Positions 7,888 through 50,155 of a stretch of 64,000 nucleotides of DNA are shown here, one piece after another. The notes under the pieces were generated by a model. The model was not told the origin of the DNA. It saw only the letters and a program-made list of their open reading frames with translations, and made no database searches. The DNA lies in assembly GCA_964010795.1 (NCBI GenBank), contig CAXGMH010000001.1, forward strand, positions 8,003 through 72,002. The letters run 5' to 3'. Every line of letters starts with the position of its first letter. The stretch's first letter is position 1. The translations under genes and the position numbers were made by a program. Source of the DNA: an uncultured Alphaproteobacteria bacterium. GTDB taxonomy: Bacteria; Pseudomonadota; Alphaproteobacteria; Micavibrionales; UBA9664.

Positions 7888-8529
7888 TTACTTCTTCTTT
7901 TGACCGATTTTCGGCTCTTCTCCCTTGATAAGACGCACGATATTCTCGTGATGCCTTGCCCATGCAATGAGCGCGATCAAACCGATGAGATAGACCTGAT
8001 TAGGCTCTCCTATGACTAGTGCAGCAACGGGCGCAAGTGCCATCGAAACCAAAGCCGACAGTGATGAAATTCTGAAGATCAGAGCTGTAAGCAACCAAAT
8101 AAGACAGGCGGCAATACCGGTCGGCCAGTTCAGCGCCAATAAAACACCCAATGTTGTCGCAATCCCCTTCCCGCCCTTGAACTTAAGCCACACAGGAAAG
8201 TTATGACCTAAGATAGAGCCAAGTGCTGCGCCAAAGGCATAAGCCGGCCCCAAACACCAGCCGATCAAAACTGCAATCGCGCCCTTACCGCCATCAAGCA
8301 AAACTGTCAGGAATGCCAGATCCTTACGGCCGGCTCTTAAGACATTAGTAGCGCCGATATTGCCGGAACCGATCTTGCGAATATCACCAAGCCCCGCCAA
8401 TGAGCAAAGCACCAAACCAAAAGGGATAGCCCCAAGCATATAGCCGCCCAAAATTCCAATTAAACCGTCTACGCCTATATGCTGACCGAACGCCTCGACC
8501 GCACGAAGCAAAAATCCAAATTCAGGCAT
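7888..8529 (-). CDS. plsY: Glycerol-3-phosphate acyltransferase PlsY
   Basis: 213-aa polytopic protein with GSGNIGATNVLR and FKGGKG motifs. Confidence 0.93.
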   Translation of the reverse strand: MPEFGFLLRAVEAFGQHIGVDGLIGILGGYMLGAIPFGLVLCSLAGLGDIRKIGSGNIGATNVLRAGRKDLAFLTVLLDGGKGAIAVLIGWCLGPAYAFGAALGSILGHNFPVWLKFKGGKGIATTLGVLLALNWPTGIAACLIWLLTALIFRISSLSALVSMALAPVAALVIGEPNQVYLIGLIALIAWARHHENIVRLIKGEEPKIGQKKK

Positions 8530-13994: not shown

Positions 13995-15700
13995 TGATGT
14001 TTAAAAAGGCGCTTACATATTCATTTGCCGCATTGGTCGCAAGCCTCAGCCTTAGCAGCCCCAATATGTCTTTGGCGCAATCTGCATTCGATGACCCGAA
14101 GCCAGAAACAGAAAGCAATGCAGGTGCCGGCCGTGCAGACGGCGATTTTATCGCCGTTCAAAACAATGTCGAAGCCGGCGAGATCGCGATTGGGGCGAGT
14201 AGCAAAGTTTTAGCGTTCTTCCGCAATGAAAGCCGCGAGATCATTACAGTAGAGGACTTAAGCCTATATCCGTCATCGAACGTTCTCGCAACTGTTAGTA
14301 GCAATGAGTGCGGGGAAACAGCTCTAACACCGGGTGCTGAATGTGCAATCATCTTGAATGTACAGGGCTCCCAGCCCGGCAGTTATAGAGTTTCCTTACT
14401 CTTAAAACACACAGGCGTAAAACGCCTTGTTTCAGCCAACATCACAGGTGAGGTGGTTTTACAGGCCGAAGGAGCAAAAGACCAGAGCCTATCTGAACTT
14501 GAGACTGGCAAAGAGCGCATTGATTTCGGTTCTGTCACATCAACTCGTCCGATCATAGAAGCGATCACCCTTAAAAATATTTCATCCGATCCAATTACAG
14601 TTGAGAACATCAAGATAGAAAGCTCAAAGCAGTCCGGCTTATCGCTTTCTCATGGCTGCGGTGAACTACAAAGTAATCAAGTATGCCTCATCTCTGTAAA
14701 ATGGGAGCCACAGGTCGAAGGACTTGCAACAGGCTTTGTTGCGATCGAACATACAGGGCGAAACAAGATCAAATATGTACCATTACGTGGCTTGTATGAA
14801 GCATCGGACGCCCCTGACGCGAGCCTGTTCCCGAGCGCGCTTCCAGGCAAAGGGTTACTGATTTCAGATATCACAGAATTTGACTTTGGCTCCGATGTTG
14901 AAAATGACACGCTTTTAACAGCAACACTGATTAATGTCGGCGATGCCCCTTTAAGTTTCAAAGGGATTGAAGTCGCAGGTGGAACAAGCACTCTTAAAGT
15001 TCTGGAACGTGGTTGCCCTGAAGAAAAGAAACTGGAGCCTACACAAGCATGCCCGATTATCCTCAAATGGTCTCCGACCTATAACGACCAAGTTCTTTCT
15101 GATGCGATGCATATCAATCACACAGGGACACGCGGGCTCCTGATGTTACCGATCACGGGTCAGGGTAAAATTGAAAAATCTGCTGAGAGAGACACTCCGC
15201 CTACAAGAAACCCTGATTCGAATACACCTCCCATGCCAGCAAACCCGAATCAGGACTTTCCTTTGCCTGCCCCAGCAAACACGCCACCAAGACTGGATCT
15301 TATGGACGACCTTTTGGAAGAGCTAACCTCGCCTACCAATATACTTCCTCTGCCTGAGCTTTCTTTAGAAGAGGAAGCACCTGCCCCAGAACCGGTAGAA
15401 GAAGAGACTGAACCTGTATCTCTGCCGATCGTGCCCAGTGCCAAGCCCATTAATCCTGAAGATCTTGAGCCTGTTGAAACCTTCTCATTCAATAATTACA
15501 TGATTAGCGCTCTGTCAAATACCAGCGCCATCTTGACTGGAGACCAAGGCAGCCTAATGGTTCGTGACGGTCGCCACACCCGCATTGACGGCACACGCTG
15601 GAAGGTAACAATCAAAGATGGTGGTGTAGAGTTTTTATCCGACCGCGAAAAAATTCTCCTGCTATTTGATGACGCTCTCCCCGTTATGCAGAGCCAATAG
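13994..15700 (+). CDS. Secreted protein with three Ig-like (ASH/PapD-like) repeats, a Pro-rich linker and a PilP/GspC-HR-like C-terminal domain
   Basis: The signal peptide is MMFKKALTYSFAALVASLSLSSPNMSLA. There are three ~100-aa repeats, each with a Cys pair and an HTG motif (ECGETALTPGAECAIILNV..KHTG; GCGELQSNQVCLISVKWEP..EHTG; GCPEEKKLEPTQACPIILKWSP..NHTG). A P/E-rich linker spans aa ~400-495. The tail is FSFNNYMISAL..SAILTGDQGSLMVRDG..IDGTRWKVTIKDGGVEFL. The start overlaps the secretin stop (TAATG). Confidence 0.7.
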   Translation: MMFKKALTYSFAALVASLSLSSPNMSLAQSAFDDPKPETESNAGAGRADGDFIAVQNNVEAGEIAIGASSKVLAFFRNESREIITVEDLSLYPSSNVLATVSSNECGETALTPGAECAIILNVQGSQPGSYRVSLLLKHTGVKRLVSANITGEVVLQAEGAKDQSLSELETGKERIDFGSVTSTRPIIEAITLKNISSDPITVENIKIESSKQSGLSLSHGCGELQSNQVCLISVKWEPQVEGLATGFVAIEHTGRNKIKYVPLRGLYEASDAPDASLFPSALPGKGLLISDITEFDFGSDVENDTLLTATLINVGDAPLSFKGIEVAGGTSTLKVLERGCPEEKKLEPTQACPIILKWSPTYNDQVLSDAMHINHTGTRGLLMLPITGQGKIEKSAERDTPPTRNPDSNTPPMPANPNQDFPLPAPANTPPRLDLMDDLLEELTSPTNILPLPELSLEEEAPAPEPVEEETEPVSLPIVPSAKPINPEDLEPVETFSFNNYMISALSNTSAILTGDQGSLMVRDGRHTRIDGTRWKVTIKDGGVEFLSDREKILLLFDDALPVMQSQ

Positions 15701-43871: not shown

Positions 43872-43946
43872 GCGGGTGTAGCTCAGGGGTAGAGCGTCAC
43901 CTTGCCAAGGTGAAAGTCGAGGGTTCGAATCCCTTCACCCGCTCCA
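43872..43946 (+). tRNA. tRNA-Gly (anticodon GCC), CCA encoded
   Basis: The cloverleaf folds by hand. The acceptor stem is gcgggtg/cacccgc, the D stem gctc/gagc and the anticodon stem tcacc/ggtga with loop ttGCCaa. The T arm is gaggg-ttcgaat-ccctt, followed by t-cca. Confidence 0.95.
43926..43946 (+). repeat. attL core (3' end of tRNA-Gly)
   Basis: cgaatcccttcaccc gc tcca. Confidence 0.8.
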
Positions 43947-44109
43947 TTTTATTTTCTCGAAAATTCTAAAAACGTCTAAATACCTTGATTTTAAGGGGAT
44001 TTTGTGCCAGCGTTTTATCTTAAGCTGTCTCAAGACATGCCCCCACATCTAGGATATTTGGGGGCACTAGAGGGGGCATAGAAAAATATTAGAGAAAAAT
44101 GTGCCCCCA

Positions 44110-45309
44110 ATGAAGTTAACAAACATTCAATGCAAGAACGCTAAGCCTAAAGAGAAGCCCTACAAGCTAGCCGCCGGACGTGGCCTATATCTGGAGATCA
44201 TGCCGAACGGCTCAAAATATTGGCGCCTGAAATATCGAATTAAGGCCGATGGAAAGCTCAAAGAGAAGCGCATAGCTTTTGGCGTGTACCCTGAAATATC
44301 ACTGAAAGAAGCCGATGAGCGTTGTACAGAGGCCAGAAAACTACTGGATCAAGACCTCGACCCTTCTGCAATTAGGAGAGAAACCAGACGCTCAGCCGAA
44401 ATAAACTCGGACAATAACTTTGAAGCCATCGCTCGTAAATGGCATGAGACATTTAAAGAGAAGTGGACTGACAGACACGCCAATACTGTATTGCGCCGCT
44501 TAGAAACTGACGTATTTTCAGAGATAGGCTCGATGCCTATTAAAGACATCAAGCCCTCACAACTGATAAACGTATTGAAGAAGGTACAAAAACGTGGAGC
44601 ATATGAACCAGCGCACCGCTTGCGCCAATACTGTGCACAGATTTTCCGCTACGCAATCATTCACGAAATCACAGACACGAACCCCGCCGCCGAAATCGGC
44701 ATGGTACTCAAGCCCTTAGTGAAAAAGCATTATGCTTGCCTCGATATAAAAGAAATACCGGAACTACTCAAAGCTATACATTTTAATAACGCACGGCTGC
44801 ATACAGACACGCGCTTGGCAATAAAACTTCTCATGCTTACTTTTGTGCGTACGAAAGAGCTTATTGAAGCCAAATGGAATGAGTTCGATTTAGAGAACGC
44901 TGAATGGATAATTCCGGCTGAGCGCATGAAGATGAGGAAGGAGCATATCGTGCCTTTGTCAAAACAGGCCGTAGACATGCTCAAAGACCTAAAAGAGCGC
45001 AATGAAAAATGGGAATGGGTTTTTCCCGGACACCATTCGCCGCGCAAACACATGAGTAATAATACAATTCTAAAGGGACTGGAGCGTTTGGGCTTTAAAG
45101 GCCGCATGACTGGCCACGGTTTCCGCGCACTGGCCATGAGCACAATAAAAGAGAAATTAGGCTACCGCCACGAAGTTGTAGACAGGCAGCTTGCTCATGC
45201 TCCCAAAAGCATGGTGCAACGCGCCTATGACCGCGCAAAATTTTTAGATGAACGTAAAGTTATGATGCAAGAATGGGCAGATTATTTGGATAGGCTTGAT
45301 AAAGCATGA
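44110..45309 (+). CDS. int: P4-type tyrosine integrase (N-terminal Arm/DUF4102 domain)
   Basis: MKLTNIQCKNAKPKEKPYKLAAGRGLYLEIMPNGSKYWRLKYR matches the P4-integrase arm-binding domain. The catalytic region has TFVRTKEL (Arg), HGFRALAMS (H-x-x-R) and LAHA...AY. It lies next to the tRNA. Confidence 0.92.
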   Translation: MKLTNIQCKNAKPKEKPYKLAAGRGLYLEIMPNGSKYWRLKYRIKADGKLKEKRIAFGVYPEISLKEADERCTEARKLLDQDLDPSAIRRETRRSAEINSDNNFEAIARKWHETFKEKWTDRHANTVLRRLETDVFSEIGSMPIKDIKPSQLINVLKKVQKRGAYEPAHRLRQYCAQIFRYAIIHEITDTNPAAEIGMVLKPLVKKHYACLDIKEIPELLKAIHFNNARLHTDTRLAIKLLMLTFVRTKELIEAKWNEFDLENAEWIIPAERMKMRKEHIVPLSKQAVDMLKDLKERNEKWEWVFPGHHSPRKHMSNNTILKGLERLGFKGRMTGHGFRALAMSTIKEKLGYRHEVVDRQLAHAPKSMVQRAYDRAKFLDERKVMMQEWADYLDRLDKA

Positions 45310-45941
45310 GGCTAGGACAAATTCGAACACTGTTGAACAAACCAAAATCCTCTCAGGTTTATACGGAAGCGGAAGCTATAAGTCATGTGATTGAGTGCTT
45401 TGACAACAAACCTGAATTTCGGAAAGAAGACATTGAGAAATTTGCTTATTTTATAGTCAAAACCGCTGGCAGAAGGGTAAGTGTGGCAACGCTTCATAAA
45501 GAGATAAAAAAAGACCGTAAGGAACTTAAAAAACTAATAAGCAAGACAATGAGCGATATAAAACATCTTCAAAAGCGTCTCAAAAACACACAATATCCTG
45601 CAACCATATATCTAAATGAAATTATTCACCATGCTACGCAAGACAATCTTGAGAGCTTAAATGATGTGCTTAGCTCTCTGCAAAGTTATTCAGATACACT
45701 CGGAAACCTACCTTTGAATAATAACTCTAATGCTCATATTCTCCACGTCACGCTAGCGCAAAGCATTCGAACCGATTACATTAACTTTTTTGGAACTGAG
45801 CCCGGCACGTCAAGAAGCATGCCCACACCCTATTCCAAAACCTGCAATATAGTGGCCGAATATATTGGATTACCAAAGCCTCGAACAAATGCAGAAAACA
45901 CCATGACGGATCAAATTCTCTCAAAAGCACGTCAAATATAG
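45306..45941 (+). CDS. Hypothetical island protein
   Basis: 211-aa ORF whose start overlaps the int stop (ATGA). It is AT-rich and I recognised no motif. Confidence 0.55.
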   Translation: MRLGQIRTLLNKPKSSQVYTEAEAISHVIECFDNKPEFRKEDIEKFAYFIVKTAGRRVSVATLHKEIKKDRKELKKLISKTMSDIKHLQKRLKNTQYPATIYLNEIIHHATQDNLESLNDVLSSLQSYSDTLGNLPLNNNSNAHILHVTLAQSIRTDYINFFGTEPGTSRSMPTPYSKTCNIVAEYIGLPKPRTNAENTMTDQILSKARQI

Positions 45942-46040
45942 GGCGATTATGCGATAAATAAAATCGCTAATCGCCTCATTCATCTATGAAACCTCATGTT
46001 AGACAAACCTGTATCTTTTAATAAACAACAGGAGACAAAG

Positions 46041-46250
46041 ATGTCTAACAAACAAGAAAATATTTTACGCTTGCCAGAGGTCATAAAACGCACAGGCATT
46101 CCCCGATCTTCCATCTATTCCGCAATAAAAGAAGGCCAATTCCCAGCGCCTATTCAATTAGGCGCAAGGCGCATAGGTTTTCTTGAAAGTGAAATAGAGG
46201 CATGGCTTGAGGAATGCATCAAACTATCCCGCCTCAACGACATCGCATAA
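46041..46250 (+). CDS. alpA: AlpA/MerR-type HTH regulator or excisionase-like protein
   Basis: There is a GGAGA RBS. The sequence is MSNKQENILRLPEVIKRTGIPRSSIYSAIKEGQFPAPIQLGARRIGFLESEIEAWL. Confidence 0.8.
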   Translation: MSNKQENILRLPEVIKRTGIPRSSIYSAIKEGQFPAPIQLGARRIGFLESEIEAWLEECIKLSRLNDIA

Positions 46251-46264
46251 TAGAGGAGAAACCA

Positions 46265-47362
46265 ATGCATAATAGCTCTTCTAATTATTTTGAAGTTGTA
46301 GATTTCAATCGGCCTGAAGCTTTCGATATCGATTATCTCTTTGAACAAATTCTTCCCAGTCTAGGGGTTAGCTTATTGCTTGGTAAAAGCAGTTGTGGAA
46401 AAACCGCAGCGCTTCTACACACAGCATATACTTTGGCCACAAGAAAACCTTTTGGGAATTTTAAAGGAGACAAGGTTTTTGAAGAATGCCATTCCCCCTT
46501 TCACGCTTCACCCATGAAAAAAGGGAGTACAATTCTTTTTGTTGGCGAGGATAAACACGATTGCCCTGCGCGTGTAGTAGCATCCGAGATTCTTTATACA
46601 CCAGAACAATTACAGAGTTTTCCCGATGGGCGACCTCCTATCATTATTGTTAAGGGCGGCCATGTAAAATTGCAGGACGCTAAACAAGCTTACGAGCTAA
46701 AAGAAGCGCTGCAAGAGCAGATAGACTTATACACCGCTTATGGCTATCCGCCTAGATTGCTTGCGTTCGACACATTATTTTCATGTTTCTTCGTCAAGGA
46801 TCAAAATAATAATGCTGAGGGAGAAGCGGTTATGAGTGCCCTAAATATTTACGCTGAAGTTTTTCAGTGTCATGTCATGGCTACAATGCATCCAGCTAAA
46901 TCAAGCAGGGCTGATAAAACGCTTAATAGCGGCGCTGCGGCTTATTTTAACCGAGCAGATGCTGTATTACAGATGAGTTCTGTTAATCAAACTCCAGCAC
47001 GCAAAATCCGCGTTGTAAAAACTAGAAACAGCCCCAGCGAAAATGCAGTAGCGCAATACCGTATTACAGGCCATGGGAATGTGCCGTTGCTACAATCCGA
47101 AAAGAGTCACGCCGCGCTCGCTGCGAATAATTCCATATCCAGAAGGGTTTATCACAAAGAGATTGTGGCATTTATGAAGGAAAATGGAGCAGCAAGCTTG
47201 GATGAAATGGCAAAAGGCATTAAACCGAGAAGAAATACCAAACCCGAAAGCATGAAGAAGAGGCTTAAAGAACGAATTGCAGAAATGATTGACAACGGAG
47301 AGGCCAAAAAAATCGGTGATCCAGTTAGTAGCCAAAAAGCTCGTTATGAATTGACGATATAG
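46265..47362 (+). CDS. RepA/AAA_25-like P-loop ATPase with a C-terminal winged-helix-like domain
   Basis: There is a GAGGAG RBS. It has Walker A (LLLGKSSCGKTA) and Walker B-like (RLLAFDTLF) motifs and is 365 aa from the ATG at 46265. The architecture is typical of small integrative elements and satellites. Confidence 0.7.
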   Translation: MHNSSSNYFEVVDFNRPEAFDIDYLFEQILPSLGVSLLLGKSSCGKTAALLHTAYTLATRKPFGNFKGDKVFEECHSPFHASPMKKGSTILFVGEDKHDCPARVVASEILYTPEQLQSFPDGRPPIIIVKGGHVKLQDAKQAYELKEALQEQIDLYTAYGYPPRLLAFDTLFSCFFVKDQNNNAEGEAVMSALNIYAEVFQCHVMATMHPAKSSRADKTLNSGAAAYFNRADAVLQMSSVNQTPARKIRVVKTRNSPSENAVAQYRITGHGNVPLLQSEKSHAALAANNSISRRVYHKEIVAFMKENGAASLDEMAKGIKPRRNTKPESMKKRLKERIAEMIDNGEAKKIGDPVSSQKARYELTI

Positions 47363-47463
47363 CAAATCTGCTAACATGAAATCATGCGCGCGTGAAAACA
47401 GAAACAGGCCGAGTTGGAAAATCTATCTTCTTCTTATAGCCCTTATACAAATCATATATGCCT

Positions 47464-47536
47464 TAACCATGGCCTAAACAAAAGCTCTATAAGCCAGATA
47501 CGGGCTTTTAGCATAAGTGCTATTAGGCCATGGTTA
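47464..47536. repeat. Perfect 14-bp inverted repeat with a 45-nt spacer in the island's non-coding region
   Basis: taaccatggcctaa (47464-47477) pairs with ttaggccatggtta (47523-47536). The spacer holds a small hairpin, aagcc-agatac-gggctt. Confidence 0.8.
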
Positions 47537-47715
47537 TCTTATCAAGGCTTTTCCTTTACGGCGCACTTCTATCCCACTTACTTACGACGGGGATAGAAGC
47601 ACAGCCGTAATTGTCCAGATTTAAGTCATTGAAAGCGAAAAGTTTTTCTACCTTAAGCGGAAAAAGGACATTTTAGCAGAGCTGCTATTTTGTCTTTTTG
47701 TCCTTAGCTGTTTTG

Positions 47716-48129
47716 CTAATTGCCCTCATGCTTCTCCAATAACAGGCGGTTTAATGCTTCTAGCTGTGCTTCATAATATTGAGTTTCGTCTTTGTATTTT
47801 TTCTCAAAAAGGAAACAAACAGTTATCAAAAAGGCACCGATAAAAAAGGCATAAATATCAAAACTATTTTCTGCCAATGAATCTTGTAATTGAGGAAAAC
47901 TCATAAAAATAAAGCCGATACCAACAAGGCCAAGAAGTCCAGTTAATGTGTGGATATCAAATAAACGCCTTCTTCTTTGCCTATGATCTACCAACAAGCC
48001 CTGTATTTTTTCAAAATTCTCGCTTAGTTGTTTTTTGCTATAACCTTTGTACAGGCTATACCAACCATTGAAGCCTATGTTCTTACTAGTCCAAAACACA
48101 TTTTTTATTTTCATCTTATCAACGCCCAT
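47716..48129 (-). CDS. Small 2-TM membrane protein (candidate effector or immunity partner)
   Basis: 137 aa with two hydrophobic helices (LTGLLGLVGIGFIFMSF, IYAFFIGAFLITVCFLF) flanked by charged segments. It is divergent from the XRE gene. Confidence 0.55.
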   Translation of the reverse strand: MGVDKMKIKNVFWTSKNIGFNGWYSLYKGYSKKQLSENFEKIQGLLVDHRQRRRRLFDIHTLTGLLGLVGIGFIFMSFPQLQDSLAENSFDIYAFFIGAFLITVCFLFEKKYKDETQYYEAQLEALNRLLLEKHEGN

Positions 48130-48138
48130 TCTTAAAAT

Positions 48139-48154
48139 ATGTATTATAATACAT
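48139..48154. promoter_or_regulatory. Perfect 16-bp palindrome, the probable operator in the divergent promoter region
   Basis: atgtattataatacat is centred in the 60-bp gap between 47716..48129 (-) and the XRE gene (+). It contains a TATAAT-like core. Confidence 0.6.
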
Positions 48155-48189
48155 GGCGCTAAAAGTCAAAAAATTGTCCATCTTTATAG

Positions 48190-48408
48190 ATGGATATAAA
48201 AAAAACCGTAGGTGCAAATATTCAAAAACATCGTAAAGCAGCCAAAATCTCGCAAGAGGAGTTGGCTGCTAGAATAGGCGCGTCCGTAGACCAAGCATAC
48301 GTTAGCAGGCTGGAAGCAGGAGAGTTAAACCCTACACTTGAGACATTGCACGCAGCCAGTAACGCGCTGGATATAGATATAAAAGACCTGTTTTCACAAG
48401 GCCAATAA
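48190..48408 (+). CDS. XRE-family HTH transcriptional regulator
   Basis: 72 aa: VGANIQKHRKAAKISQEELAARIGASVDQAYVSRLEAGELNPTLETL. Confidence 0.88.
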   Translation: MDIKKTVGANIQKHRKAAKISQEELAARIGASVDQAYVSRLEAGELNPTLETLHAASNALDIDIKDLFSQGQ

Positions 48409-48487
48409 GCAGAATTTTTAGCATATATTTTTGCTCTACTTATAAAAAAGAAAGCTTTTACAGGCACATAAGATGAAAAAAAAATTT

Positions 48488-48509
48488 ACCCCCTACCCCC
48501 TACCCCGCC
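48488..48509. repeat. C-rich heptamer repeat (G-quadruplex-capable on the minus strand)
   Basis: cccccta cccccta ccccgccc. The complement is GGGCGGGGTAGGGGGTAGGGGG, with four G-tracts of at least 3 and 1-2-nt loops. Confidence 0.7.
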
Positions 48510-48553
48510 CGAGGTAGCAATAAGACGGCTAAGTGAAACACCAACCCTATATA

Positions 48554-48582
48554 TTGTTAGAAATCATCTTGTAGAGTATGCT
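48554..48582 (+). promoter_or_regulatory. Putative sigma70-type promoter of the TIR-like gene
   Basis: TTGTTA, a 17-nt spacer, then TATGCT, lying 27 nt upstream of the ATG at 48609. Confidence 0.3.
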
Positions 48583-48608
48583 AAAACATCGAAGGAACAC
48601 AAAAGACA

Positions 48609-50048
48609 ATGAGCACACAAGATAATACAAGCCTTTTTATATCATATAGCTGGAAACCAGATGACCACGAAGAATGGGTTTTAGAGCTCGCAACAGCCTT
48701 ACGTCAAGACGGTGTTGACGTCATTTTAGACAAATGGGACTTGAAAGAAGGGCACGACGCTCATAAATTTATGGAACGCATGGTAGCCGATAAAAAGGTA
48801 CAGAAAGTTGCCATTATCAGTAATAGCACATATGTAGAAAAAGCTAATGGTAGAGAAGGCGGCGTGGGCACTGAAACTCAAATTATCACTCCCCAAATAT
48901 ATCAAAAGCAGGAACAATCAAAATTCGTAGCTATTGTTTCTGAGCACGACGAAAATGGTAATCCTTACCTTCCTGTATATTATCAATCTCGTATTTACAT
49001 AGATTTGAGCACTCCGGAGCTTTATGCTAAAAACTATGAGCAACTGTTAAGGTGGATATATGATAAGCCCGTATACATCAAACCTGATTTGGGGAAAAAG
49101 CCTTCTTTTATTGAGGATAATGATGCTCCAAAACTTGAAACCGCAGTACAATTTAAGAGAGCTCTTGATGCCATTAAATTTGATCGGCCTAATAAATGGA
49201 CAACTTTACAAACTTATCTAGAATTATTCTCAGAGAACTTAGAACGCTTTCGTATTAGCCTAAGCAGAGAAGAAACGCCCGAAAAAATAATAGAAAATAT
49301 TAAACAATTCCTTCCGTTTCGGAACGAAATATTAGAAACATTTTTTGTAATTGTTCAATACACGCCGGAACCAGAAGCATGGAAAACGATACATAGGTTT
49401 TTTGAGAAGCTGCTTACATATACGTTCCGTCCAGAGCACATAAATAGTTACTCGTCATGGGATTTCGAAAACTTTAAGTTTATCGTACACGAGCTATTTT
49501 TATACCTGCAAGCTATCTTACTTAAATATGAGCATTTTGATGCCGCCCGCTATTTTCTCGTAAATGAATATTACGTAGATAACTCAGGTGAAGAAAATGG
49601 AATGGTTTCTTATGATAAAATACGCCCTCATCTCGATTCTTTAGAGAGCCACGGAAGAAAGAATAGACGACTTTCTTTTCATGCCGATCTGCTTGAGCAA
49701 AGAGCGAAAACATCCGGCCTAAACTTTTCTTATATTATGCAAGCAGACTTTACCTTATTTTTAAGAGACATATTAGCAGCCGTAAATAATGAACGTTATC
49801 AAACTTGGTGGCCATACTCACTTCTATATATCAGAAACAAGCACAAACCCTTTGAAATTTTCGCTCGCTCGCAATCCAAAAAGTATTTTCAAAATATAAC
49901 TCCTTTATTAGGAATAAAATCAAAAACCGATCTGGACAGACTTTCAGAGGCCATTAAGGAAGGTAAAGTAAAAATACCTAGGTGGGAGTTTGCAAGTTTT
50001 GATTTATTTAGCTTAATTGGCTACAATAAACTTTCTACAAAGGAATAA
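48609..50048 (+). CDS. TIR/SEFIR-fold (STIR superfamily) N-terminal domain protein with a ~330-aa uncharacterised helical C-terminal domain
   Basis: The N-terminus reads SLFISYSWKPDDHEEWVLELATALRQDGVDVILDKWDLKEGHDAHKFMERMV..KVQKVAIISNSTYVEKANGREGGVGTETQII. This fits the FISYS...H..WV..LA..L...G..V.LD.W pattern of bacterial TIR/SEFIR domains. The remainder carries no motif I recognise. Confidence 0.7.
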   Translation: MSTQDNTSLFISYSWKPDDHEEWVLELATALRQDGVDVILDKWDLKEGHDAHKFMERMVADKKVQKVAIISNSTYVEKANGREGGVGTETQIITPQIYQKQEQSKFVAIVSEHDENGNPYLPVYYQSRIYIDLSTPELYAKNYEQLLRWIYDKPVYIKPDLGKKPSFIEDNDAPKLETAVQFKRALDAIKFDRPNKWTTLQTYLELFSENLERFRISLSREETPEKIIENIKQFLPFRNEILETFFVIVQYTPEPEAWKTIHRFFEKLLTYTFRPEHINSYSSWDFENFKFIVHELFLYLQAILLKYEHFDAARYFLVNEYYVDNSGEENGMVSYDKIRPHLDSLESHGRKNRRLSFHADLLEQRAKTSGLNFSYIMQADFTLFLRDILAAVNNERYQTWWPYSLLYIRNKHKPFEIFARSQSKKYFQNITPLLGIKSKTDLDRLSEAIKEGKVKIPRWEFASFDLFSLIGYNKLSTKE

Positions 50049-50136
50049 GTTTTAAATCTTGGGGGCATAAATGGGGGACTTTGTATAGTTCTAATTTAAA
50101 CTTTATGAACTATATCAATCTATTAAAATTCATTTA

Positions 50137-50155
50137 CGAATCCCTTCACCCTCCA
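50137..50155 (+). repeat. attR core
   Basis: cgaatcccttcaccc tcca gives a 15/15 match to the tRNA 3' end, plus tcca after a 2-nt gap. Confidence 0.8.

Follow-up and report, generated by a model that had tools for sequence, protein, structure and literature searches.

A probable 6.2-kb integrative island with a bSEFIR anti-phage gene at the 3′ end of tRNA-Gly(GCC) in an uncultured alphaproteobacterium

We analysed a 64,000-nt stretch of DNA from an uncultured marine alphaproteobacterium (positions 8,003 to 72,002 of contig CAXGMH010000001.1, assembly GCA_964010795.1; hereafter the window), in which a reading of the sequence without database searches (the original prediction) had placed an integrative island beside a tRNA-Gly(GCC) gene. 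The interval 43947–50155 is very probably a site-specific integrative island that entered at the 3′ end of this tRNA gene, carries an anti-phage gene of the bacterial SEFIR (bSEFIR) type as cargo, and would cost the cell the tRNA if it were excised. Taken by itself, the element is a small genomic island of an ordinary kind: its defence gene is known, as is the type of defect in its right attachment site. What is new is the identity of the cargo as bSEFIR, the co-varying integrase sites that confirm the island ends, and a set of related integrases located at tRNA-Gly(GCC) whose islands carry swappable defence cargo.

The target is the only tRNA that ARAGORN found in the window (coordinates of all features are collected in Table 1). 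Its 3′ part, from the T-loop onward, constitutes the left attachment site (attL), and a displaced copy of this fragment at the far end constitutes the right one (attR). Both contain the 15-mer CGAATCCCTTCACCC, which spans the T-loop into the 3′ acceptor strand and has exactly two copies in the window, at 43926–43940 and 50137–50151, with up to two mismatches tolerated. As originally described, the repeat is identical at 15 of 15 positions and continues with TCCA after a 2-nt gap. Several independent Tara Oceans assemblies reproduced the right-end sequence, including the shortened repeat, at 99.8–100% identity, and the gap is therefore not an assembly error. The island measures 6,209 bp and has a GC content of 40.0%, against 48.5% in the 6-kb flanks, which agrees with the predicted AT-richness. 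Its neighbours were also named correctly: a gene with a LON substrate-binding domain on one side, and MgtC and P450 genes on the other.

For comparison, we retrieved loci that encode related integrases: 58 came from species-representative genomes, and a few more from metagenome assemblies. All 20 integrases that were at least 72% identical and had upstream DNA available were located 164–177 nt downstream of a tRNA-Gly(GCC) gene; the window integrase, at 164 nt, is typical of this family. The hosts of these integrases are metagenome-assembled genomes (MAGs) labelled Alphaproteobacteria, Micavibrio, Rhodospirillales or Pseudobdellovibrionaceae. More distant relatives (49–59% identity) follow a tRNA-Ser, Asn, Gln, Glu or Thr gene with comparable spacing. 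The same comparison revealed putative arm-type integrase sites. The window contains eight copies of GGGGGCA, of which five fall within the island arms, four of them in the P′ arm and one, at 50061, in the P arm, where it is followed by GGGGGAC at 50072. The layout of the P′ arm (one inverted site, two direct sites and a further inverted site abutting the int start) is common to 19 related islands, and a direct pair in the far arm, ∼60 nt left of the displaced tRNA fragment, is common to all of them. Crucially, the C or T variant of the motif (GGGGGCA or GGGGGTA) was the same in both arms in 11 out of 11 islands for which both arms were available. This co-variation makes GGGGGCA a good candidate for the arm-type sites of the integrase, predicted here in the P arm as well as in the P′ arm, and sets the right border of the window island at 50155. 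The fourth site (44102–44108) directly abuts the int start codon (44110) in the window, and the corresponding site does so in every sister island; the junction (44102–44112 in the window) reads TGTGCCCCCAATG, or TGATACCCCCAATG in islands of the GGGGGTA type. This position suggests that Int bound at attL represses its own expression.

These data also bear on the simplest objection, namely that the repeat arose by chance or is generic to the DNA downstream of tRNA-Gly and that the genes next to it are native. A 15-nt repeat alone is indeed weak: the chance expectation for matches in the window is 0.13, and one of 100 shuffled sequences contained two matches at two or fewer mismatches. However, attR sits ∼60 nt from its arm-site pair exactly as in the related islands, the integrase is at the family-typical distance from the tRNA, the GC content drops by 8.5 points, and sister integrases at tRNA-Gly(GCC) have different right-hand neighbours and different cargo. 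We consider this explanation hardly credible.

ORF calls and Pfam confirmed the predicted gene order and domains: an integrase with the Arm/DUF4102 N terminus, an overlapping open reading frame (ORF), AlpA, an AAA_25 protein and three more genes. The integrase combines an N-terminal arm-binding domain (Arm-DNA-bind_3, formerly DUF4102; E-value 1.8e-23), a central domain (Phage_int_M, 5.8e-33) and a catalytic domain (Phage_integrase, 3.1e-24) with the R-K-H-R-H-Y residues, the composition of a P4-type integrase. It also matched the integrase family phrog_1 (3.7e-65) in PHROGs and PRK09692 (3.4e-84, under the curated cut-off) in NCBIfam. The catalytic residues R247, K274, H336, R339, H363 and Y373 are all present and are invariant among 23 close relatives, in line with the intact active site originally proposed. 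The gene overlapping int, ORF211, had no family in Pfam, PHROGs, PADLOC or NCBIfam and only one relative (35% identity) among 1.84 billion representatives; its single-sequence AlphaFold model was unusable, with a model confidence (pLDDT) of 44. AlpA matched phrog_66 and phrog_2790 (excisionase, transcriptional regulator) and is a candidate excision activator or directionality factor.

By its sequence, the main cargo is a bSEFIR, a known single-gene anti-phage system, which gives a name to the anti-phage cargo anticipated in the original prediction. The 479-aa protein matched the PADLOC bSEFIR model (PDLC03957) over residues 2–478 (4.8e-117) and phrog_11745 in PHROGs (3.4e-140). In Pfam, SEFIR (7.9e-16) was slightly ahead of TIR_2 (8.9e-16), and the crystallised SEFIR domain of Bacillus cereus (PDB 5y8e) was matched at 3.3e-36. 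Alignment to the B. cereus domain includes an Asp of the conserved motif ILD(K/R)W, which may correspond to D40 of the published tested protein, the Asp needed for SEFIR–SEFIR contact. Homologues from prophages in a phage collection are 32–34% identical. The published bSEFIR is a single-gene system of Bacillus sp. NIO-1130 (Millman et al. 2022), and published work has it deplete NAD+ through its N-terminal domain upon phage infection. The window protein shares with it the single-protein design, the N-terminal SEFIR domain followed by a long C-terminal region, and the full-length match to the PADLOC model; it differs in having a helix-turn-helix (HTH) regulator gene and a divergent gene for a small membrane protein upstream. 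The C-rich sequence ccccctaccccctaccccgccc (48486–48512), a direct repeat, lies ∼100 nt before the bSEFIR start codon.

Comparison of the tRNA-Gly locus across related genomes thus yielded related islands with the same attachment-site and arm architecture and with different cargo, in support of the predicted integrative island at a tRNA 3′ end. These sister islands range from 4.4 to 10.7 kb and have in common int, a gene overlapping or adjoining it, and alpA. The slot after alpA holds either a replication module (AAA_25 in L035 and L080, a Toprim primase with a 522-aa protein in L036), or a 171-aa protein together with a second tyrosine recombinase, or nothing. The pair of the 171-aa protein, which belongs to no family, and the shorter recombinase is kept in five islands (L025, L027, L029, L030 and L046), as exemplified by L025:12490–14021 (Phage_integrase, 7e-16). 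At the distal end, the cargo can almost always be recognised as a defence system: type III restriction–modification (R-M) in L025 and L030, AbiD in L030, Cas9 and Cas1 with a 12-repeat CRISPR array in L027, DRT9 with SbcB in L029, and type IIG R-M in L046. In L027:9838–19555 (OY969717.1, an uncultured alphaproteobacterium MAG), a 9.7-kb island at tRNA-Gly(GCC), an apparently whole type II CRISPR-Cas locus with a 1048-aa Cas9 and an array of 66-nt period (14070–14845) lies beside the int-ORF-alpA chassis and the second recombinase. In L080, which encodes the closest integrase (95% identity), AlpA is 84% identical to that of the window, the overlapping gene only 23% and the AAA_25 protein 27%; int and alpA therefore form a conserved chassis, and the remainder turns over fast. 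To the right of the displaced tRNA fragment in L016 (14262–14300) and L032 (17095–17150), the sequence resembles the P′ arm of another island, which suggests tandem arrays or remnants of earlier integrations at one tRNA.

The window attR reads CACCC-TCCA, compared with CACCCGCTCCA in tRNA-Gly, and so lacks GC just before the discriminator T. The description of the attachment repeats as intact holds for the 15-nt core, which is exact, and fails for the acceptor stem, of which attR lacks 2 nt. Such damage recurs: in 12 of the 13 tRNA-Gly islands with a locatable attR, the displaced fragment lacks 1–4 nt at acceptor positions ∼69–72, L030 alone being intact, and comparable deletions are present in islands at tRNA-Asn, Ser and Gln. 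We considered the deletion as a new feature and dropped this view, since the defect is already in Islander and Williams 2003. Islander, citing Williams 2003, lists 148 'islands with damage' among 3919, and a published table gives 1–5 nt deletions at the matching position in ssrA fragments displaced by P4-integrase islands of six gamma-proteobacteria. The consequences are also documented: excision of CP4So from Shewanella, an island with a P4 integrase and AlpA, leaves ssrA one U short and abolishes the function of the transfer-messenger RNA, and CP4-57 of E. coli likewise passes its defect to ssrA upon excision. This transfer of the defect to the target gene led us to drop a second idea, in which the deletion belongs to attP and the crossover takes place 3′ of it. 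By the precedent of both islands, the crossover would instead fall 5′ of the attR defect.

With a crossover in the 15-nt core, the modelled post-excision tRNA-Gly has a C2-U71 mismatch, carries C in place of U at the discriminator position and encodes no CCA. Bacterial glycyl-tRNA synthetase recognises C2:G71 and U73 as identity elements, and the post-excision tRNA is therefore expected to be non-functional. After excision, the chromosome would keep a defective tRNA-Gly(GCC) and the intact 3′ end would travel on the island, and this loss of tRNA function should penalise spontaneous island loss. The island is probably still recombination-competent, but its excision would not restore tRNA-Gly. 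The proposal that the island is possibly still excisable fits the published islands with similar defects, which do excise; in these, however, excision inactivates the target gene.

The 2 nt missing from attR could also mean that the element is a fixed, domesticated remnant, which integrated once, was locked in place by the defect and persists as a chromosomal defence locus. Every contig with island proteins shows the occupied site and no circular form was found, as this scenario would have it. Yet all parts needed for mobility look functional, with full-length int, alpA and AAA_25 frames, a complete catalytic set, six retained arm sites and an exact 15-nt core. Moreover, CP4So and CP4-57 still excise despite a like defect, and the 12 of 13 sister islands that share the defect differ in cargo, pointing to ongoing turnover rather than decay. 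A fixed remnant is possible, but we doubt it. At the opposite extreme, the islands could represent an undescribed family of minimal satellites or defence shuttles resembling the phage-inducible chromosomal minimalist islands (PICMI) of Vibrionaceae (PMC10803314). Such a family would target tRNA-Gly(GCC), its sister lineages would use other tRNAs, and both would inhabit Micavibrio-type and other uncultured Alphaproteobacteria. The conserved chassis of int, hypervariable overlapping gene and alpA would shuttle one defence system at a time between hosts, even one as large as an entire Cas9 locus, and the near-universal 1–4 nt attR defect would serve as an addiction lock, the working tRNA 3′ end being present on the island only. 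We regard this broad interpretation as speculative and rather improbable.

Table 1. Features of the island and its integration target (window coordinates)
Feature	Position	Strand	Basis
tRNA-Gly(GCC), integration target	43872–43946	+	ARAGORN; Rfam tRNA model, 72.9 bits
attL, core CGAATCCCTTCACCC then GCTCCA, T-loop to CCA end	43926–43946	+	repeat search
P′ arm, four predicted arm-type sites GGGGGCA	44038–44108	44038–44044 (−), 44060–44066 (+), 44072–44078 (+), 44102–44108 (−)	motif count; related-island layout
int, P4-type heterobivalent tyrosine integrase, 399 aa	44110–45309	+	Pfam, PHROGs, catalytic residues
ORF211, 211 aa, predicted all-helical	45306–45941	+	ATGA overlap with int at 45306–45309
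alpA, AlpA-family HTH protein, 69 aa	46041–46250	+	Pfam Phage_AlpA, 7e-19
AAA_25 (RepA/DnaB-like RecA-fold) ATPase, 365 aa	46265–47362	+	Pfam AAA_25, 1.4e-13; Walker A GKSSCGKT at residue 40
Structured non-coding region, 353 nt, long hairpin at ∼47462–47540	47363–47715		fold, repeats
137-aa protein, hydrophobic segments, one passing the Kyte-Doolittle threshold (small membrane protein)	47716–48129	−	ORF call
Perfect 16-bp palindrome ATGTATTATAATACAT between the divergent 137-aa and HTH genes	48139–48154		sequence scan
XRE/Cro-type HTH_3 regulator, 72 aa	48190–48408	+	Pfam HTH_3, 9.4e-15
bSEFIR anti-phage protein, 479 aa, N-terminal SEFIR/TIR-like domain	48609–50048	+	PADLOC, Pfam, PDB, PHROGs
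P arm, predicted pair of arm-type sites TTGGGGGCATAAATGGGGG	50059–50077	+	∼60 nt left of attR core; repeat search and related-island layout
attR, displaced tRNA 3′ fragment CGAATCCCTTCACCC-TCCA, without 2 nt (GC) of acceptor stem	50137–50155	+	repeat search; independent assemblies

Between alpA and the cargo, the AAA_25 ATPase is a candidate replication helicase or initiator. It had weak primase/helicase matches in PHROGs, a single word-sharing relative among 5.8 billion proteins, and no match in PDB or among PLSDB plasmids. The non-coding region downstream of it folds as DNA at −52.6 kcal/mol (z = −4.0 versus shuffles), contains a 14-nt perfect inverted repeat (I23) and matched no Rfam family; it is a candidate replication origin or other cis site, for example a packaging site, or might encode a small RNA. 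The Rfam scan of the whole island detected no non-coding RNA family besides the tRNA, and promoter and terminator scans returned no more sites than shuffled sequence. The HTH_3 protein matched the PADLOC models HTH_VI, R-M control protein and capH, and probably controls the cargo genes, as judged from its position and domain. The 137-aa protein had no significant family in Pfam, PADLOC or PHROGs. The palindrome ATGTATTATAATACAT is a candidate operator.

The incoming island very probably brought a tRNA 3′ end of its own, and the original fragment, moved to the opposite end, became attR. The next steps can be envisaged by analogy with CP4-57, CP4So and PICMI115. AlpA, probably together with ORF211, would trigger Int-mediated excision by a crossover inside the 15-nt core, and the AAA_25 ATPase would then replicate the circle, perhaps from the region 47363–47715. 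As genes for capsids, packaging and conjugation are all absent, transfer would depend on a helper. In the integrated state, bSEFIR would pay for the upkeep of the island, with the adjacent HTH gene as its likely regulator.

Who might provide that help is where further explanations divide. The island may be a minimal satellite of the PICMI type, in which a helper phage induces AlpA, excision, AAA_25-driven replication and packaging into helper capsids, and bSEFIR acts against other phages. Its size and gene order nearly match those of PICMI115 (6.2 versus 6.1 kb), both are marine, ORF211 is as hypervariable as the corresponding PICMI gene iolg (a 23% match next to an integrase with 95% identity, and a single relative among 1.84 billion proteins), and damage to the tRNA would be immaterial in a cell doomed by a virulent helper. 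However, no helper phage is known, the element has no PICMI-type primase and is not adjacent to fis, and several sister islands have no replication gene at all. Viral sequence collections did not yield a link either: integrase relatives in IMG/VR were at best 50% identical and belonged to ordinary prophages, so that this integrase subfamily has no close relative there, the AAA_25 protein and ORF211 had no meaningful relatives in IMG/VR, and a gapped attP pattern (P-arm sites, core, P′-arm motif) matched no viral or metagenome contig. We therefore consider a phage satellite unlikely, if far from absurd. The lack of transfer genes of its own, which makes some helper a requirement, would equally suit an integrative mobilizable element (IME) moved by a co-resident conjugative element through an unrecognised origin of transfer (oriT), and the region 47363–47715 could hold such a cis site. 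Against this stand the absence of any relaxase, coupling protein or known oriT-type feature in Pfam, PHROGs and NCBIfam, and of any PLSDB plasmid similarity of the AAA_25 protein; mobilisation of this kind is improbable.

Several points weigh against a mobile island as proposed here. Scans for an empty attB, a circular attP junction or an island-free strain found none, and all contigs with the exact proteins, as well as all short Tara contigs, were collinear with the occupied site. Insertion and mobility are instead deduced from the attachment-site architecture, composition and comparison. The roles given to ORF211, the AAA_25 ATPase (including its candidacy as a replication protein), the hairpin region, the HTH regulator and the 137-aa protein come from position or domain only, and the placement of the crossover is borrowed from CP4So and CP4-57. 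A second tRNA-Gly(GCC) gene in the host, if present, would remove the excision penalty. Neither the proposal that the island is probably recent nor a claim of present activity found support, given that the scans detected neither a relative without the island nor an empty attB nor a circular junction.

Few sequences are available from the host lineage. A search of genome contigs with the LON-domain flank protein and one of metagenome contigs with the P450 flank protein returned no relative. Among LON-domain proteins from other organisms, one reaches 77% identity and all others stay at or below 54%. The 77% relative is encoded on two contigs of Logan assemblies (SRR17165154 and SRR17165150; L078:1–15 and L079:1–15), both of which break off on the tRNA-proximal side, 15 nt short of the start of the LON gene. 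Contigs typically break at variable or repeated DNA, which hints that the locus is variable there too.

The window element is part of a coherent, apparently undescribed set of very small islands (4–11 kb) in poorly known alphaproteobacteria. Because they keep one integration chassis and exchange defence systems, they conveniently list the mobile immunity genes that occur naturally in MAGs from marine and fresh waters, and the co-varying arm sites provide exact island borders that can be used for mining further cargo. Defects of the recurrent attR type have so far been described mainly for ssrA islands of gamma-proteobacteria; here they affect an essential tRNA in another bacterial class, and the idea that such a defect stabilises islands becomes testable.

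How does the element compare with described classes? P4-like satellites are defined in SatelliteFinder by psu, delta, sid, ash and an alpha-type primase-helicase together with int and alpA. Only int and alpA were found here, with no match to the other genes in PHROGs, Pfam or NCBIfam. The seven island proteins also included no terS, ppi/cpm, capsid or pri-rep families of phage-inducible chromosomal islands (PICI) or their capsid-forming variant (cf-PICI) in PHROGs and Pfam; by gene content, the element is thus neither a P4-like satellite nor a PICI, two of the classes named in the original prediction. Neither relaxase, type IV secretion system nor oriT-type feature of an integrative and conjugative element or IME was detected in Pfam, PHROGs and NCBIfam. 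With P4-like satellites and mobile defence hotspots, the island nevertheless shares the integrase family, AlpA and a variable anti-phage slot, at about half the size of P4.

The layout comes closer to PICMI. PICMI115 of Vibrio chagasii is 6.1 kb long and carries int, iolg, alpA, up1, prim and an anti-phage gene; iolg overlaps int by ATGA, is required for excision and falls into 13 unrelated families (PMC10803314). PICMI are defined by co-located int, alpA and a primase (DUF3987 or DUF5906), with integration adjacent to fis called a hallmark (PMC10803314). Compared by layout only, not by protein, the window element has the same ∼6-kb size, the same order of int, ATGA-overlapping gene, alpA, replication gene and anti-phage gene, the same hypervariability of the overlapping gene, the same absence of capsid and packaging genes, and a marine origin. 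It has the int-overlapping gene before alpA, which is typical and not mandatory, and lacks both the primase, in place of which it has the AAA_25 ATPase, and the fis site, being located in tRNA-Gly(GCC) of an alphaproteobacterium with no fis adjacent. It may work like a PICMI; we do not class it as one.

The best-documented counterparts are CP4-57 of E. coli and CP4So of Shewanella oneidensis. These also place a P4-type integrase beside the 3′ end of a tRNA-like gene, encode AlpA, have a displaced fragment with a 1–5 nt deletion just upstream of the discriminator and carry defence-type cargo (R-M and toxin–antitoxin systems in CP4So). They differ in their target, ssrA rather than tRNA-Gly(GCC), and in being mosaic prophage remnants of 22–36 kb rather than a 6.2-kb island of an uncultured marine alphaproteobacterium; their excision has been observed, whereas the window island is known from its sequence. 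In the terms of Islander, a complete tRNA gene is followed downstream, in the same orientation, by a displaced 3′ fragment of the same tRNA, with a tyrosine integrase inside an interval whose length is within 2–200 kb. The element is thus a tDNA island by the Islander definition and belongs, with its damaged displaced fragment, to the P4-integrase/AlpA group.

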